Shown here: in pieces, positions 3,116-19,677 of the stretch | Numbering within the stretch: the stretch's first letter is position 1 | Layout of the letters: each line of letters begins with the position of its first letter | Virus record (IMG/VR): IMGVR_UViG_3300025858_000002 | DNA: 49,385 nt | Reading direction: 5' to 3' (one strand) | DNA from: a virus | Translations under genes and position numbers: made by a program | The notes under the pieces: model-generated | The model's database searches: none | Told to the model about the DNA's origin: nothing | The model's input: only the letters and a program-made list of their open reading frames with translations

Positions 3116-3322
3116 TTAGTCGCCCAATAAGCTATCAATGTATTCCTGTTGGTATCTAATCGAGTCATTGGCTTGAGATAGATTAGAAACACATTCTGCT
3201 AATTGTTTGTTTTTACTTAACTGTTTATCAATAGACGAATCTATAATAAAGGAGTTAATGATTGTAAAAAAACATCCTACAAGTGATACTAATAGGATTG
3301 TTGCAATGTTGTCTTTAAGCAT
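3116..3322 (-). CDS. Membrane-anchored coiled-coil protein (i-spanin- or holin-like)
   Basis: N-terminal transmembrane segment ILLVSLVGCFFTIINSFII followed by a polar helix. It overlaps the 3' end of the lysozyme gene. Confidence 0.4.
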   Translation of the reverse strand: MLKDNIATILLVSLVGCFFTIINSFIIDSSIDKQLSKNKQLAECVSNLSQANDSIRYQQEYIDSLLGD

Positions 3323-3964: not shown

Positions 3965-4255
3965 TTACACCTCTTTTTCGTTTAAATCAATTTTTTTCCA
4001 AAAGTTCTTTGCACTTGGTCTATCGTTGTAATGGTTCCAATTTGCTATAGAAGCATCTCTAGATGAGCCTAGAAATTCATAAGGATCCCAACAATCACAA
4101 GTTTTTGTTATAGATGGACAAAATAATCCATTCTTGTCTGTATATTCTTTTGTCTTATATCTACCGTGGCATTGTGTATAGTACATATCCATTAACTTAA
4201 CAGTTATAGGTAAGTTTCCACACTTTTTACACGGCACAGGTTTTTCTTTATTCAT
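3965..4255 (-). CDS. Hypothetical Cys-rich (zinc-ribbon-like) protein
   Basis: ORF track. CKKCGN...C...C.C pattern. Start/stop junction with the upstream gene. Confidence 0.5.
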   Translation of the reverse strand: MNKEKPVPCKKCGNLPITVKLMDMYYTQCHGRYKTKEYTDKNGLFCPSITKTCDCWDPYEFLGSSRDASIANWNHYNDRPSAKNFWKKIDLNEKEV

Positions 4256-14077: not shown

Positions 14078-14162
14078 TGGTGGGCAGGGCTGGATTTGAA
14101 CCAACGAACTCTGAGAGAACAGATTTACAGTCTGCCTGCTTTAACCTCTTGCATACCTACCC
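14078..14162 (-). tRNA. tRNA-Tyr (anticodon GUA), class II, CCA encoded
   Basis: Hand-folded cloverleaf. Acceptor GGGUAGG/CCUGCCC. D stem UGC/GCA with a GG loop. Anticodon arm GCAGA-CUGUAAA-UCUGU. 13-nt variable arm. T arm GUUGG-UUCAAAU-CCAGC. Ends A-CCA. Confidence 0.9.
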
Positions 14163-14715: not shown

Positions 14716-14863
14716 TTTATTTCCTTTTTGTTTTAAAAGCTAGATATAGCAGTTGCTTTCACATCTCTTTTACTAGACGCTATACTCAAAACTTCTGGAA
14801 AGCGTATGCCTCGCACGGATTTATCATCTTTGTATATCTCTACATACGCACTCTCCAAAACTT

Positions 14864-15001
14864 TTACATACTAATCAGTTTATAAATAAACGGTATGCAG
14901 AACAATAAACTTGCTAATAACTTACCAATAAAATTATCAGCTGTTAGTCTTAATACGTTTGTCCCTAAACAAATAGTTAATATGATTGCATAAGTTAACA
15001 T
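14864..15001 (-). CDS. Hypothetical small membrane protein (45 aa)
   Basis: Own translation MLTYAIILTICLGTNVLRLTADNFIGKLLASLLFCIPFIYKLISM. SD AAGGA upstream. Confidence 0.4.
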   Translation of the reverse strand: MLTYAIILTICLGTNVLRLTADNFIGKLLASLLFCIPFIYKLISM

Positions 15002-15018
15002 CTTTTATATCCTTATAT

Positions 15019-15145
15019 TGGTGGGGCGGAAGCCGCGATTCTTAGATAGCGATTGCACTTCTGCTATGACTAGAACGTTTGTTTTATTATGCAAAACTAG
15101 CGAGTCGCCTTATTCCTGTCAATATCCTTGCGGGATATAAGCCCC
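15019..15145 (-). ncRNA. tRNA-like RNA (element D) with internal copy of the downstream SD
   Basis: Terminal helix GGGGC/GCCCC joins 15145-15141 and 15027-15023, then A-CCA. Hairpin AUAUCC-CGCAA-GGAUAU. The 8-mer atatcctt occurs at both 15122-15129 (internal) and 15007-15014 (SD of the next ORF). Confidence 0.4.
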
Positions 15146-15387
15146 AAAACTACTAAGCAGAGAGATAATCAAAAAGACTATCTCTCTACGGTTCACACGG
15201 TCAACCCGTGACTAACTTATGGTTGTTAGGCTTCCATATAGCCGGTTATATTGCATCATAGATCGCAACAGGTATAAATAGGTTGTCCGTTTTGGAATCT
15301 TTCAATCTCTATCGTATATCGTTCTGTAATCTTGATTACTATGAATTAACTAACCCATACTCCCGACCATTAAATCGGGAGCCTGCA
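15146..15387 (-). ncRNA. Structured non-coding spacer
   Basis: No ORF longer than 15 codons. Hairpins CUCCCGA-UUUAAUGG-UCGGGAG (15381-15360), AGAGAGAUA/UAUCUCUCU (15187-15159), CACGG-GUUGA-CCGUG and GUAAUC-AA-GAUUAC. Confidence 0.3.
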
Positions 15388-15843
15388 TTAGTCTTCCAAT
15401 GCTGATTCTGGATCTTCTTCCAACGCTTTAATCTGAGCTACCAAAGCAGAGATACCTGCTTTTTGTGAACCCTTAGCAATTTTCAGAACTTCACCAACAT
15501 CTTTTGCACCTTTGACTTCGTCCATACGTTCGTGCAAGGCAGACATCAAACGTTTGGTTTTTGCAGCAACGGCTTTGAAGATATTATAGTTTTTAATATC
15601 AACTTTACCGATGGTCAATGGGATATCAGAAATCTGAGTACCACCATTTTCTGCTTTAATATACTCATATTCTGCATAAACTTCTTTCACTTTGAAATAA
15701 GCCAGCTTGCTATGAGCCCAGACAGAAAAGATATCGCCCTTAGCAACTTCTTTTTCACTTGTTGCATAAAAACGAAATTCTTTTGAATCCGGTTCGTCTT
15801 TGGTATGAGATACCAAGACACCTTTTAAGATTAAGACTTTCAT
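15388..15843 (-). CDS. Hypothetical protein (first gene downstream of the ribozyme)
   Basis: ORF track. SD AAGGAG upstream. Visibly higher GC than its neighbours. Confidence 0.55.
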   Translation of the reverse strand: MKVLILKGVLVSHTKDEPDSKEFRFYATSEKEVAKGDIFSVWAHSKLAYFKVKEVYAEYEYIKAENGGTQISDIPLTIGKVDIKNYNIFKAVAAKTKRLMSALHERMDEVKGAKDVGEVLKIAKGSQKAGISALVAQIKALEEDPESALED

Positions 15844-15866
15844 TCATTTCTCCTTTTTTATGATTA

Positions 15867-15934
15867 GACTAGTCTCATCAGTAGCATAGGAGTCACCTAT
15901 ACTAGACCGGCATTATACCGGTTTCGACAAATGA
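15867..15934 (-). ncRNA. Type II hammerhead self-cleaving ribozyme
   Basis: Minus strand reads UUUGUC-GAAA-CCGG(UAUAAUG)CCGG-UC^UAGUAUAGG(UGACU)CCUAUGCUA-CUGAUGA-GAC-UAGUC. All core nucleotides are present (CUGAUGA, G10.1-C11.1, GAAA, A15.1-U16.1, C17). Stem I is 9 bp and stem III 5 bp, and stem II is open. Confidence 0.85.
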
Positions 15935-17137
15935 TTACAATGGCAATTCGTTTTCATTTGCTGGGTCTTCCATATCTAAATCTTTCATAAATTCATCTAT
16001 GAAATCATCTACATATGAATCAAATGTATAATACATAACTGACCTTTCTTGAGCATCTTTACCAGGTTTAATGTTCTGTACCAAGAAATCTACTAAGGAT
16101 TCTGTTGATACTTCTTTACCAGCCTTAATAAGTCTTTGAACAGCATTACATACTGCATAATGAGCGTGAATTTGTTCTTCAACTTCTGTTCTAGCATCTT
16201 TTGTCTTATACCCCTTAGACAGATACTTATTCAATAAGATATTTCTTTTGAATTGAAATTCTTTTAATACGCTATGTATCTCATCTTTTTTGTCGTATGT
16301 TTTATTTGGCAATTTTTCATCAGGCATTATAGATGGGTCTAGAAAATACAAACCTTTCTTTGATAAACAAAGTTTTGTTCCATATTCATAAACAGGTATC
16401 TTTACACGAGATGTTGCATATATCCAAACTCCCTGTTGTTTATCATACAACCCAAATTCTTTATGAAATTTCTTTGTAGAAAAGTTAATTTGCGGCTTGA
16501 ATTCAGAGTCAGGCTTTGGCAAGAAGTTATACCCTTTATGACCATAACCATCATCAAGATCATCATATTTGTTATAGTTATAGTTCTTAGGATAAGAATA
16601 AATTTTAGGTTTAAAAGCTCCAGAATTGGAAAACCAAGCACCATCTTTTTCTTCTCCTAATCTCTTATTGAGAATAAGAATTTCGCCAGTTACATTATCC
16701 ATAATAGCAAACTTAGACGTTCCAAGATATGCTTCTAATAATGCCTGATATTTCTTAACCCAAGTAATATCTTTATCGTGCAAATATGTATCACCAAATG
16801 TTTCAGAATCAGTTTTTCCTTCTGTTGGTGTGATAGCCAATGTCCCGTTATGGGCTAAACTAATTCTATTATAGATAAATGGGTGTGTGTTTTCTGGCTT
16901 AACTTCACCCTTTGATGCAATTCTAAAATGAGCAACAAATGAAGTATTTTTTTCGTTAACTAATTCTAACATACCGAGAAAATCTTCTTTAACCATCATA
17001 CCTTTTTTAAACTTTGTAGGTTTGCCATCTTCTTTAAAGATAACACCACCGCCTTGAGGGTTTGCTTCCCAAGCTCTTTTAAAATATTCTTTATCCAACG
17101 GATCAACTCCAGCTGGCTTCGCAATAATAATGCACAT
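15935..17137 (-). CDS. Class-II (Ntn, Cys2) glutamine-amidotransferase-like protein with about 200-aa C-terminal extension
   Basis: MCIIIAKPAG (nucleophile Cys directly after Met), HFRIASKG, NTHPF and LAHNGTL. Confidence 0.7.
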   Translation of the reverse strand: MCIIIAKPAGVDPLDKEYFKRAWEANPQGGGVIFKEDGKPTKFKKGMMVKEDFLGMLELVNEKNTSFVAHFRIASKGEVKPENTHPFIYNRISLAHNGTLAITPTEGKTDSETFGDTYLHDKDITWVKKYQALLEAYLGTSKFAIMDNVTGEILILNKRLGEEKDGAWFSNSGAFKPKIYSYPKNYNYNKYDDLDDGYGHKGYNFLPKPDSEFKPQINFSTKKFHKEFGLYDKQQGVWIYATSRVKIPVYEYGTKLCLSKKGLYFLDPSIMPDEKLPNKTYDKKDEIHSVLKEFQFKRNILLNKYLSKGYKTKDARTEVEEQIHAHYAVCNAVQRLIKAGKEVSTESLVDFLVQNIKPGKDAQERSVMYYTFDSYVDDFIDEFMKDLDMEDPANENELPL

Positions 17138-17374
17138 AGTTTCTTCCTTTATAAATTATGAAGAAGATAGCCACCAAAACTATAAGCGACACTCGGGTCA
17201 AATTATAGTGTTATGGTAAACCCTCACAAGTAGTGACTTTCGCATACTATATCCAAACAAGTTTGGCATCAATGGTACTCACCCTATGTTGATCAACGGG
17301 TAACTTTTACATAGACAACTATCTTCTTCTTTTGTTAAGCAGACAAATAATATTACCTCTGTTAAAAGTAAAGA
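17138..17374 (-). promoter_or_regulatory. Structured 237-nt leader between amidoligase and amidotransferase-like genes (element F)
   Basis: An 11-bp long-range helix GAAGAAGAUAG/CUAUCUUCUUC (17329-17319 with 17170-17160) closes about 150 nt and ends about 20 nt before the start codon. Inner helices are ACUAUAA/UUAUAGU and CCAAAC-UU-GUUUGG. A GAAA tetraloop motif is present. Confidence 0.4.
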
Positions 17375-18727
17375 TTATCCATCTAACTTATTCACTAGGA
17401 CCAAGGCTTCTTGGTCAGTAATGAATCTTGTCTTCTTTTGTTGTTCAATACAATCTTTTATATGCTTCTTTGTAGCTTTTGAGAAAGACTTATACCAATC
17501 TTTTTCTGGTATATTCTCAGCTACAAGATTAAACATTTCCTTAGCAAACTTAATACGTTTAATAATCAAATCGTGGTCTAATGATGATGAAAAGATTCTA
17601 AACTCACAAGTATCTGTTCTACGTCCGGGTGCAACTGCCCAATGATGCGAATCTGTTCCAGAATCAAATGAACAATATCTCATAAACTTTTCTATATTAG
17701 TTCTTAAAGATATTGCCTTCAATAATATTTGCATCTCAGCAGAGCTACGAGCGTGCTTCATAATAACTCTAGCAATATTTCTAGAGTCCTTACCAGGCAT
17801 CGATACGTGAATATGAATTCCTGCTGTTGGTCCAGCTTTACCACCATTTTCTGATATAGCTTTACAAACTTCTTTTAACGGAGATATATACTTCCACCAA
17901 GAATAAGACCCACAGTTCCAAGATAACTCATTTTGTCCATCAACTGATGAATCATATCCATAGAAAGCTAATCCTTTATGAGCATCTTCTAATTCTTTCC
18001 AGCCATAGAAATTGCCTTCAAACTCCATTTCCAGCCCCATAATAGCAGTATTTTGCTTATCCATTGGAGTCTTAAAGAATTTCAAGTCGCCCCTGAATCC
18101 ATAATGTCTATTACCCATTTCTTTTGTTGTCAATTCATAATTGCGATGACAAGTATTACATACGAGTCTATCACAGTTAGGAACACGGGTTAAAGTGTTT
18201 TTAATCTCGCTAATTCTTTGGATTGATTCTGTTGTCTTGTGACAAAAATCACAGGTCTGAGCAACTTTAACAAAGTGTTTATTAGGCAATTTACTCAATT
18301 TAACCTTATAACGTCTTTCAAGTTCTGGTAACCCAAGCTTCAAATATTCTTCATCTTTCTTATCAATACGCTTTTTTTCAGCTTCTTGCTGTTCCTTAGT
18401 CTTTTTATTACTATTCCAAATTACAGTGGATTGTCTTCGTTGATATGCATCTAATGCTTCTCGATAACTTGGAGTAGGTATTCTAACCTCATCCCAGCTT
18501 TCTGATACACTTATCTCAGCACTTCTTGGCAGATGAATAACTTCAAATCTTACAAAATATTCCCTACCATTTCCAACACCAGTACTTTCAATCCCTCTAA
18601 AAAGCATAGTGGCACTTTCTGTTGCGATACCATTATCTCTAAAATAGAATCGTTTAAATTCTTCCATTTCACTATCGTTTGGAATAGTATCAAAATATAC
18701 TCTGCCTTCTGTATGTCTTAAATACAT
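17375..18727 (-). CDS. Amidoligase_2-family protein with N-terminal extension and Cys-rich insert
   Basis: GLEMEFEG, AGIHIHVS and CEFRIFSS (E.E / H.H / EFR triad). CDFCHK...CDRLVCNTCH. Confidence 0.7.
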   Translation of the reverse strand: MYLRHTEGRVYFDTIPNDSEMEEFKRFYFRDNGIATESATMLFRGIESTGVGNGREYFVRFEVIHLPRSAEISVSESWDEVRIPTPSYREALDAYQRRQSTVIWNSNKKTKEQQEAEKKRIDKKDEEYLKLGLPELERRYKVKLSKLPNKHFVKVAQTCDFCHKTTESIQRISEIKNTLTRVPNCDRLVCNTCHRNYELTTKEMGNRHYGFRGDLKFFKTPMDKQNTAIMGLEMEFEGNFYGWKELEDAHKGLAFYGYDSSVDGQNELSWNCGSYSWWKYISPLKEVCKAISENGGKAGPTAGIHIHVSMPGKDSRNIARVIMKHARSSAEMQILLKAISLRTNIEKFMRYCSFDSGTDSHHWAVAPGRRTDTCEFRIFSSSLDHDLIIKRIKFAKEMFNLVAENIPEKDWYKSFSKATKKHIKDCIEQQKKTRFITDQEALVLVNKLDG

Positions 18728-18738
18728 AATTTACTCCT

Positions 18739-19677
18739 TTAATTCCAGCTACAAGCTGTCAGTAAATTGTTTATTTTATCCTTAGAATACCCATAAAGAT
18801 GTTTATTGTCTTCGTGATTATTCAATAAATAAACAATATCTTTTATCTTTTTTGGCATATCAACAAACATTGTATTGATATTTCCTTTTTCTATAATATA
18901 ATCAGTAAACCACTTCATTAAGATCATCCGTTTATATATAATCTCTGGGTGGTTAGTTGATTCAAACATCCTAAATTCAAACGTACCAAATGTTGATAAT
19001 TGATTCCTATATGAACCACCTCCAAATCCATAATTAGTCCTATTTCTAGCTGATATACCTGCAAAAAATTCATATATAGGGTTATTATCTGTACAAACTC
19101 TACTCCAAAAATTTATTACCTTTACAATAGCTGGGTGAGATATATGAATATGTTGTCCAGCAGTTTTACCAGCTTTACATCCTTTTTCCTTTGCATAATC
19201 TAATACTGCTTTAATATCTTTAAGCCGCCATTTATTCATAGGATAATGATTAGTCACAATTTCACAGCCACCATCTGCTACACTTCCATCACAATGAGAA
19301 GAATGAACAATCTTATTGTCAGGTTTGCAAACTGGTCCTTCGAGTTCTATCTCAGTTCCAAGATGACAAATCCTTTTTACTGTCTTTTTAGGTTGATTAT
19401 TATCAAACTTCTTTGTAAATAATAACATTTGATTGTATGTATCTGAACACGCAACACCCCAACAATTATTGTGATAAGGAGTCCTGTATTGACTTCCACT
19501 TCCTTGTCTTATTTGAATACCATCTGCTGTATGCCAAATAAATACCCAATAAGGACGACCTTCATTTCTCAATTTTATAGCTTTTATTTTTCTACCTTTC
19601 ATAACAATATCTTCGTTTTCTGGTATCAAAGATAAAAAATCAGCCCACGTAGCTGGTAACTTTTTAATTATAAACAT
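18739..19677 (-). CDS. Amidoligase_2-family protein (paralogue)
   Basis: GTEIELEG, AGQHIHISH and FEFRMFEST. Confidence 0.7.
   Translation of the reverse strand: MFIIKKLPATWADFLSLIPENEDIVMKGRKIKAIKLRNEGRPYWVFIWHTADGIQIRQGSGSQYRTPYHNNCWGVACSDTYNQMLLFTKKFDNNQPKKTVKRICHLGTEIELEGPVCKPDNKIVHSSHCDGSVADGGCEIVTNHYPMNKWRLKDIKAVLDYAKEKGCKAGKTAGQHIHISHPAIVKVINFWSRVCTDNNPIYEFFAGISARNRTNYGFGGGSYRNQLSTFGTFEFRMFESTNHPEIIYKRMILMKWFTDYIIEKGNINTMFVDMPKKIKDIVYLLNNHEDNKHLYGYSKDKINNLLTACSWN

Follow-up and report, generated by a model that had tools for sequence, protein, structure and literature searches.

A probable type II hammerhead ribozyme ahead of one conserved gene in a clade of uncultured phages

Comparison with described hammerheads

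Type II hammerhead ribozymes in phage operons, in which loop I forms a pseudoknot with the 3' tail, were described in 2011 (Perreault et al. 2011, PLoS Comput Biol 7:e1002031; PMC3088659). In that work, the pseudoknot was described for most type II hammerheads and was required for fast cleavage at 0.5 mM Mg2+, pseudoknotted type II ribozymes were fast in vitro, and hammerheads flanking prophage genes cleaved 2-kb polycistronic transcripts (PMC3088659). Furthermore, in vivo cleavage by type II hammerheads has been shown for Desulfovibrio vulgaris (PMC8782182). The purpose of bacterial and phage hammerheads is still unproven, and most known examples lie beside genes of inconstant identity. Here, we analyzed a 49,385-nucleotide (nt) stretch of viral DNA (IMG/VR record IMGVR_UViG_3300025858_000002; the window hereafter means this whole stretch), in which an earlier note had placed a complete type II hammerhead on the minus strand, between an amidotransferase-like gene and the next gene. 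The element is very probably a genuine type II hammerhead self-cleaving ribozyme within the transcript of a leftward operon, where it would likely cleave between C17 and U1.1 and decouple the downstream gene. Note that self-cleavage of this RNA, a shared transcript for the two genes and an effect on expression are inferences.

All coordinates given for the window are positions in the 49,385-nt stretch, and RNA elements are read on the minus strand. After the TAA of the gene encoding a protein of 400 amino acids (aa), the minus-strand RNA reads UCAUUU GUC GAA ACCGGUA-UAA-UGCCGGU C^ UAGUAUAGG-UGACU-CCUAUGCUA CUGAUGA GAC U AGUC UAAUCAUAAAAAAGGAGAAAUGA AUG, where ^ marks the predicted cleavage site (Table 1). 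The hammerhead core spans 15928-15872 (minus strand) and, with the pseudoknot tail, the element extends to 15867. Its parts are ordered as the 3' strand of stem II, GAA, the stem III hairpin, C17, the stem I hairpin, CUGAUGA and the 5' strand of stem II, leaving stem II open, which is the type II permutation. The positions that the earlier note gave for TAA, GAAA, C17, U1.1, CUGAUGA, GAC and AGUC are all exact on the minus strand. Its stem lengths were also right, namely a stem I of 9 base pairs (bp), an open stem II and a 5-bp stem III (ACCGG/CCGGU), the last of which is extended by two further pairs (U-G and A-U) to 7 bp with a UAA loop; these stems covary in relatives, as detailed below. 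Stems I and III were present in the predicted minimum-free-energy fold (RNAfold, z = -3.0).

The hammerhead criteria of Perreault et al. 2011 (PMC3088659) are a full consensus core and no mispair adjoining the core in stems I-III. All 13 consensus core positions (C3, U4, G5, A6, N7, G8, A9, G12, A13, A14, A15.1, U16.1 and H17) are present in the window copy, the cleavage-site triplet is the preferred GUC, and the core-adjacent pairs U1.1-A2.1, G10.1-C11.1 and A15.1-U16.1 are all standard and are retained in 15/15 relatives. As in the type II hammerheads of Perreault et al. and Rfam family RF02276, stems I and III are capped, stem II is open and short, the core is full, stem I has 8-9 bp, loop I pairs over at least 4 bp with nucleotides just 3' of stem II, and the element lies between genes, as those found in phage or prophage operons do. 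The RF02276 consensus tail, AGCC, is also the tail of several of the relatives. However, whereas the RF02276 consensus has two annotated stem II pairs and no linker, the present element has a 3-bp stem II and a 1-nt linker. Unlike published prophage hammerheads, which occur as several copies flanking genes, it is a single copy in a 49-kb genome and is tied to one junction throughout the clade; a search of the window for a second copy with our own model, filters off, found none, the next best match scoring 12.4 bits.

The halovirus HF1/HF2 'HHphage' hammerhead lies 13 nt upstream of the helicase start codon, and a transcript 5' end was mapped at its cleavage site (PMC3088659). The element of the window is likewise a phage ribozyme just upstream of a translation start, and the HF1/HF2 region is polycistronic and early. 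In contrast to the HF1/HF2 hammerhead, an archaeal-virus core variant that has insertions and is salt dependent, the present one has a canonical core and belongs to a phage with strong Shine-Dalgarno sites. Stabilization of the core by a pseudoknot is also a feature of a pseudoknotted hammerhead with pistol-like connectivity (Nat Commun 2024, PMC11300833). In that variant, however, the pseudoknot replaces helix II and there is an extra stem-loop, whereas here a normal stem II is accompanied by a pseudoknot between loop I and the tail. Judged on these comparisons, the element is a well-supported and convincing further example of a well-known hammerhead class, and not a new kind.

Conservation and covariation in related loci

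Loci of relatives were collected from IMG/VR and JGI metagenomes by an alignment-based scan, from ENA and Logan by exact-protein look-up, and from GTDB genomes; pattern scans of IMG/VR that used one of the two flanking proteins at a time yielded no relatives. Homologs of the amidotransferase numbered 107, mostly 38-46% identical and many of them on contigs of ~50 kb. Fifteen distinct homologous elements were obtained, together with two in contigs of metagenome-assembled genomes (MAGs), and the amidotransferases of the carriers are 36-46% identical to that of the window. In every clade locus that reached far enough downstream, the interval from the amidotransferase gene to the homolog of the gene for the 151-aa protein contained a coding-strand type II hammerhead. 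The distance from the amidotransferase stop to the hammerhead ranged from 0 to about 250 nt (about 100-450 nt in a sub-lineage with an extra A in the core), and the distance from the pseudoknot tail to the downstream ribosome-binding site was always short (roughly 10-25 nt), indicating that the element goes with the 5' flank of the downstream gene. A purine-rich ribosome-binding site follows the hammerhead in all relatives, mostly AAGGAG-like, with GAGAGG in L022 and AUGGAG in L040 (L numbers are our locus labels). No hammerhead was present at amidotransferase loci that are more distant and differ in gene order (L044-L046 and L049), so that the element is confined to one clade. The ribozyme is thus fixed at one gene junction, directly before the ribosome-binding site, in at least 17 diverged phage contigs, and this fixed genomic context makes mRNA separation, 5'-end stabilization or insulation testable.

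Covariation was quantified in alignment A3, a register-anchored, hand-built alignment of 15 distinct sequences with gaps written as N, which MAFFT left unchanged. The stem sequences share no recognizable similarity among the 15, yet pairing is kept. Standard pairs filled 95.0% of 358 cells, compared with 29-38% when the 3' partners were slid by 1-3 columns, and compensatory changes occurred in 23 of the 29 pairs; none of 500 column shuffles reached the observed value on any of five measures. In stem I, all eight shared pairs had compensatory changes, and 98% of cells were paired. Stem II has exactly 3 bp in all sequences and is closed by a mismatch, with compensatory changes in one of its three pairs and the other two invariant (15/15 G-C; 10 U-A and 5 C-G; 15/15 C-G). 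A longer stem II was also considered, and was rejected on the mismatch at the next position in every sequence. For stem III, where A15.1-U16.1 is invariant, compensatory changes were seen in 11 of 13 columns and pairing was 100%, but these figures are inflated, and count for less in favor of the hammerhead, because the stem boundaries were chosen by pairing in a hand-made alignment, making the 100% partly a product of construction. Stems I and II and the pseudoknot were fixed by their distance from the core and are free of this bias. Furthermore, RNAalifold applied to a plain MAFFT alignment of eight sequences predicted stems III and I, with compensatory changes in 10 of 13 pairs.

The unpaired core, in contrast to the stem sequences, is almost invariant. 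C3, G5, A6, G8, A9, G12, A13, A14, A15.1 and U16.1, as well as the G10.1-C11.1 pair, were found in 15/15 sequences, and U4 in 14/15 (U4C in L040). Position H17 is C in 10 sequences and A in five, never G. The freely varying core position is N7 (U in nine, A in five, G in one), the one that the hammerhead consensus leaves free. Both the sequence and the covariation of relatives therefore bear out what had been claimed from the window, that is, a complete type II core with G10.1-C11.1, A15.1-U16.1 and a C17 cleavage site.

The loop I-tail pseudoknot proposed in the earlier note, GACU (15894-15891) with AGUC (15870-15867), covaries in relatives and matches the type II pseudoknot of Perreault et al. 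2011 (PMC3088659). The pairing is GAC(U)/(A)GUC in the window, L001, L003, L004, L039 and L041, GGC/GCC in L005, L006, L022, L032, L034, L036 and L038, and GAU/AUC in L024, L040 and L048. Its central three pairs are kept in 15/15 sequences, two of them with compensatory changes, and the longest helix has 6 bp (UGGCGU/ACGCCA in L022). Stem II is of the type GUC/GAC or GCC/GGC, and the four combinations of these with the pseudoknot types are all represented, indicating that stem II and the pseudoknot are separate helices and not one ambiguous pairing. The pseudoknot would hold stems I and II parallel, replacing the loop-loop contacts of other hammerheads.

We also noted that the 5' strand of stem II, the linker and the tail of the window copy (15867-15874, minus strand) together make a perfect 8-nt palindrome, GACUAGUC (GGCUAGCC in L005 and L006). 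Such a palindrome could in principle let two transcripts pair intermolecularly; it is probably incidental, since the segment is non-palindromic in other relatives (GACAAGCC, GGCACGCC).

Chance controls, database models and rival explanations

The window was searched with our own type II descriptor, and the only compact match was this element. When the whole window was shuffled 400 times with dinucleotide composition preserved, neither strand gave a match with a stem I of at least 5 bp, a stem III of at least 4 bp and hairpins of at most 35 nt; the best shuffle match had 18 stem pairs with long loops, and the window element has 19. The absence of a comparable match in 400 shuffles indicates that the element is real and not due to chance. 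A chance reading would see two intergenic hairpins unrelated to each other, next to which GAAA and CUGAUGA stand by accident; the shortness of these motifs and a sub-threshold Rfam score might encourage it. However, besides the shuffles, this reading has to face the same architecture in 17 diverged loci with compensatory changes, and we give it practically no credence.

Several observations weigh against the hammerhead assignment, or against strong activity. A scan of the whole window with Rfam at gathering thresholds returned a tRNA only and no hammerhead, a scan of a 201-nt slice at E<=10 returned no hammerhead, and a gathering-threshold scan of five relatives returned nothing. The earlier note had named the Rfam Hammerhead_II covariance model as a check and had taken a score below the family threshold as a sign against the hammerhead. 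On this point the result went against it: in a 73-nt slice, RF02276 (Hammerhead_II) reached 24.2 bits (E = 0.0018) where gathering requires 37, which places the element outside Rfam's operational membership. As for structure, the 3-bp stem II was missing from the minimum-free-energy fold (-20.4 vs -23.7 kcal/mol), and the tail can join a weak alternative hairpin. As for the core, five sequences (L004, L032, L034, L036 and L038) have an extra A between A9 and G10.1 (CUGANGA-A-GAC), and L040 (3154-3227) reads CCGAUGA (U4C), with its stem I interrupted by an A.G mismatch and by a bulge. These core changes could lower activity, so that strong activity may not be needed in all lineages. Finally, the benefit to the phage, whether stability or insulation, is something that we infer entirely.

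With regard to the Rfam scores, we judged the threshold rule too strict, because the RF02276 match is full length (1-66 of 66) and to a single family, the homologous element in L022 scored 36.1 bits in a tight slice (still below 37), and L013 was missed by a 13-kb scan. L013 (1330-1391, minus strand) and L018 (589-666, minus strand) lie on unrelated IMG/VR contigs and are other type II hammerheads with the same CUGAUGAGACUAGUC end. They came from exact 15-mer and 16-mer scans of IMG/VR with core plus tail (CTGATGAGACTAGTC and CTGAAGAAGACAAGCC), which gave 15 and 62 loci, nearly all chance or coding; hammerheads were found only at these two, both of other families. Rfam at E<=10 returned nothing for either (the L013 scan covering 13 kb and not a tight slice), and our own model gave L013, a textbook-looking type II hammerhead, 44.5 bits. 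Given that Rfam scans return nothing for L013 and L018, the filters of the Rfam tool are insensitive for type II hammerheads. The Rfam result thus makes the element a borderline case of the curated family and is not evidence against the motif. Since a gathering score is a curated search threshold and not a property of a ribozyme, we file the element under the hammerhead class and not as a member by Rfam's threshold. As the standard Rfam scan misses the clade, elements of this kind go unannotated in phage genomes; the 15-17 collected sequences could extend the Hammerhead_II seed, with the extra A and U4C as natural core variants. Note that stem II of L013 has 5 bp and that the 3' part of this ribozyme gives a weak whalefall-1 match (15.7 bits). 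The L018 ribozyme, whose stem I is long and imperfect, precedes a ribosome-binding site and start codon, as the window element does. Comparison of the 3-kb neighborhood of the window element with GenBank phages by blastn gave no match.

Two other Rfam families matched below threshold, freshwater-2 (33.6 bits) and preQ1-II (19.6 bits), and both were rejected as similarity of hairpins and ribosome-binding site only. The former deserves a fuller account, since the region could be read as the freshwater-2 RNA motif (RF02980), a candidate cis-regulatory 5' untranslated region in which three hairpins precede a ribosome-binding site. The match is full length (15841-15922, minus strand; E = 0.00076 in the 201-nt slice) and aligns stems III and I and the ribosome-binding site. 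However, its score is below the gathering value of 49.9 and comes partly from AAAGGAG...AUG and generic hairpins; the match is absent from the whole-window scan, and no relative reaches the threshold. Moreover, the freshwater-2 consensus has no CUGANGA or GAAA core, and the hammerhead core and tail, to which its third hairpin is aligned, form no hairpin here. We therefore regard this explanation as scarcely credible.

The core variants bear on a different alternative, in which the element is of hammerhead origin but survives as a relic with little or no activity, the two hairpins being kept as 3'/5' stabilizers or as an RNase processing site. The changes tolerated in relatives (the extra A in L004 and L032-L038, and U4C in L040) would suit a relic, as would a stem II of just 3 bp. 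On the other hand, the window copy has a perfect consensus core with the preferred GUC triplet, the unpaired core is invariant despite dissimilar stems, which a hairpin role alone would not conserve, and the pseudoknot covaries. With a perfect core and a family under evident purifying selection, a relic is improbable for the window copy, and an active type II hammerhead remains the preferred reading.

The extra A occurs in the sub-lineage of L004/L026, L032, L033, L034/L035, L036/L037 and L038. Its conservation across several different stem I and stem III sequences argues that it is tolerated or selected, and this sub-lineage may tune the cleavage rate. An active (+) hammerhead of chrysanthemum chlorotic mottle viroid (CChMVd) reportedly has an extra nucleotide between A9 and G10.1. 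The extra A of L004, L032, L034, L036 and L038 would stand at the same place, whereas the window copy has no insertion; the CChMVd (+) hammerhead is type III with loop-loop contacts, whereas the present element is type II. The reference that PMC2632901 gives for the CChMVd (+) hammerhead with an extra nucleotide is De la Pena and Flores 2001 (J Biol Chem 276:34586). The changes in L040 may mark a copy whose activity is weakened or lost, or may stem from misassembly.

Predicted role in the leftward operon and genomic context

The hammerhead shares the minus strand with both amidoligase genes, the amidotransferase gene and the gene for the 151-aa protein (leftward block), and no terminator-like site was found between the latter two. 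We propose that the element is transcribed within a leftward operon of amidoligase, amidoligase, amidotransferase and 151-aa genes. By homology with characterized hammerheads, the 2'-OH of C17 would attack the adjacent phosphate, cutting between 15905 and 15904. The upstream RNA would carry a 2',3'-cyclic phosphate after its terminal stem III hairpin. The first nucleotide of the downstream RNA would be U15904, bearing a 5'-OH; this RNA would retain the stem I hairpin and could still form the pseudoknot. The new 5' end would lie ~50 nt upstream of an exposed Shine-Dalgarno sequence, which the fold predicted for the 3' cleavage product leaves unpaired. Upstream and downstream messages would likely gain separate fates, with the stability and translation of the downstream message independent of the upstream cistrons. 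The suggestion of the earlier note, that cleavage would sever the amidotransferase message from the 15388-15843 message, seems reasonable, and the same role was proposed earlier for phage hammerheads (PMC3088659).

The predicted cut also coincides with the start expected from a promoter-like sequence. TTGTAA-17 nt-TATAAT (15940-15912, minus strand) matches a sigma-70-type promoter at 10 of 12 positions, its -10 hexamer being the stem III loop, and transcription would begin ~7 nt downstream, at ~15905/15904; if it drove the downstream gene, a 5' end near 15904 would be a transcription start. However, promoter-like matches in the region numbered 31, compared with 32.2 expected from shuffles, and the match is not conserved, as the stem III loops of relatives (GAAA, AAUAAC, CCUC, UUGU and others) have no -10 hexamer. 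A promoter would also leave CUGAUGA, GAAA and the covarying helices unexplained, and we consider this account very unlikely. Note that the promoter and hammerhead readings are not mutually exclusive, and that a promoter-like match at the cleavage site makes 5'-end mapping alone ambiguous, so that the chemistry of the end would decide.

Beyond cleavage itself, the hammerhead might provide a built-in 5' end for one gene in a clade of ~50-kb gut/rumen phages, shielding its message from 5'-end-dependent decay and insulating its translation; we hold this possibility tentatively, with less than even confidence. If true, the clade would be among the clearest natural cases tying a bacterial-virus hammerhead to one defined regulatory job. 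The RiboJ insulator, engineered from a satellite-RNA hammerhead of type III to which a hairpin was added, separates the ribosome-binding site from whatever sequence precedes it. Like RiboJ, the element is a hammerhead before a ribosome-binding site that would give a fixed mRNA 5' end; here the arrangement is natural and the effect presumptive.

Table 1. Features of the hammerhead element and of the surrounding genes in the window.
Feature	Position	Strand	Remark
Amidoligase_2-like gene, 312 aa	18739-19677	-	
Amidoligase_2-like gene, 450 aa	17375-18727	-	
Class II glutamine amidotransferase-like gene, 400 aa	15935..17137	-	Pfam GATase_4 27.2 bits (cut-off 23)
Amidotransferase stop codon TAA	15937-15935	-	6 nt before stem II (15928)
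Stem II 3' strand GUC (G11.3 U11.2 C11.1)	15926..15928	-	pairs with GAC 15872-15874
Core G12 A13 A14	15923..15925	-	GAAA including A15.1 = 15925-15922
Stem III hairpin ACCGGUA-UAA-UGCCGGU	15906..15922	-	A15.1 = 15922, U16.1 = 15906; 7 bp
C17 (15905) and U1.1 (15904), predicted scissile phosphodiester between them	15904..15905	-	from hammerhead consensus
Stem I hairpin UAGUAUAGG-UGACU-CCUAUGCUA, 9 bp	15882..15904	-	loop I UGACU at 15891-15895
Loop I GACU, pseudoknot 5' half	15891..15894	-	complementary to AGUC 15867-15870
Core CUGAUGA (C3 U4 G5 A6 U7 G8 A9)	15875..15881	-	read from sequence
Stem II 5' strand GAC (G10.1 A10.2 C10.3)	15872..15874	-	sequence and covariation alignment
Linker U, single nt between stem II and tail	15871	-	sequence
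3' tail AGUC, pseudoknot 3' half	15867..15870	-	same arrangement in published type II consensus (PMC3088659) and Rfam RF02276 consensus (tail AGCC)
Shine-Dalgarno AAAGGAG of downstream gene	15850..15856	-	10 nt after pseudoknot tail
Downstream gene, 151-aa protein	15388..15843	-	always next gene after hammerhead

The window, which matches a JGI metagenome contig of 49,436 bp, most likely represents almost the entire genome of a tailed phage that has not been cultured, and its large terminase is 28% identical to those of cultured phages. One carrier contig of the clade was binned in a MAG of Congzhengia sp. (Clostridia), which weakly suggests a Firmicutes host, in agreement with the strong Shine-Dalgarno sites. 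The order of the amidoligase-amidoligase-amidotransferase cassette (15935-19677, minus strand) is conserved in related phages; the 450-aa Amidoligase_2-like protein has Cys-rich stretches that give weak cytochrome-c-like matches.

The protein encoded downstream of the hammerhead is conserved (149-162 aa) and has the motif GDIFSVWAHSKLAYFKV; in L005, L006 and L043 it is a 162-aa homolog with an N-terminal extension. Searches of Pfam, PHROGs and PDB sequences with the 151-aa protein gave no match, and a Foldseek search of its AlphaFold2 (AF2) model (pLDDT 79) against the PDB gave nothing significant. The model consists of an N-terminal beta domain and C-terminal helices, and the sole structural hint was a weak resemblance to the N-terminal DNA-binding domain of PriA (E 0.3). 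Past this gene, ~670 bp (14716-15387) hold only very short open reading frames (at most 45 aa on the minus strand), and relatives have small genes (63-110 aa) at the counterpart of this segment, which may encode small proteins or a non-coding RNA. A tRNA-Tyr (anticodon GTA) with a long variable arm lies at 14078-14162 (minus strand), ~1.2 kb downstream of the 151-aa gene.

Two further observations concern the sequence of the element and its surroundings. UAAUCAU forms a perfect 7-nt direct repeat at 15931-15937 and 15860-15866 (minus strand), bracketing the hammerhead and its tail (15930-15867); the TAA that ends the amidotransferase gene is part of the first copy, and the repeat was not seen in the relatives inspected. 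It could be due to chance in AT-rich sequence, or be a trace of insertion or replacement of a ribozyme cassette. In addition, a long stem III bears anti-Shine-Dalgarno-like CUCCU or CCUCC in its loop or at its apex in L001 (~4208-4230), L032, L038, L039 and L040 (~3172-3182). The CUCCU of the window sits in the 3' strand of stem I (15886-15890). Base-pairing of such segments to the AGGAG downstream would be conceivable either before cleavage or after it, but the feature is not consistent across the family.

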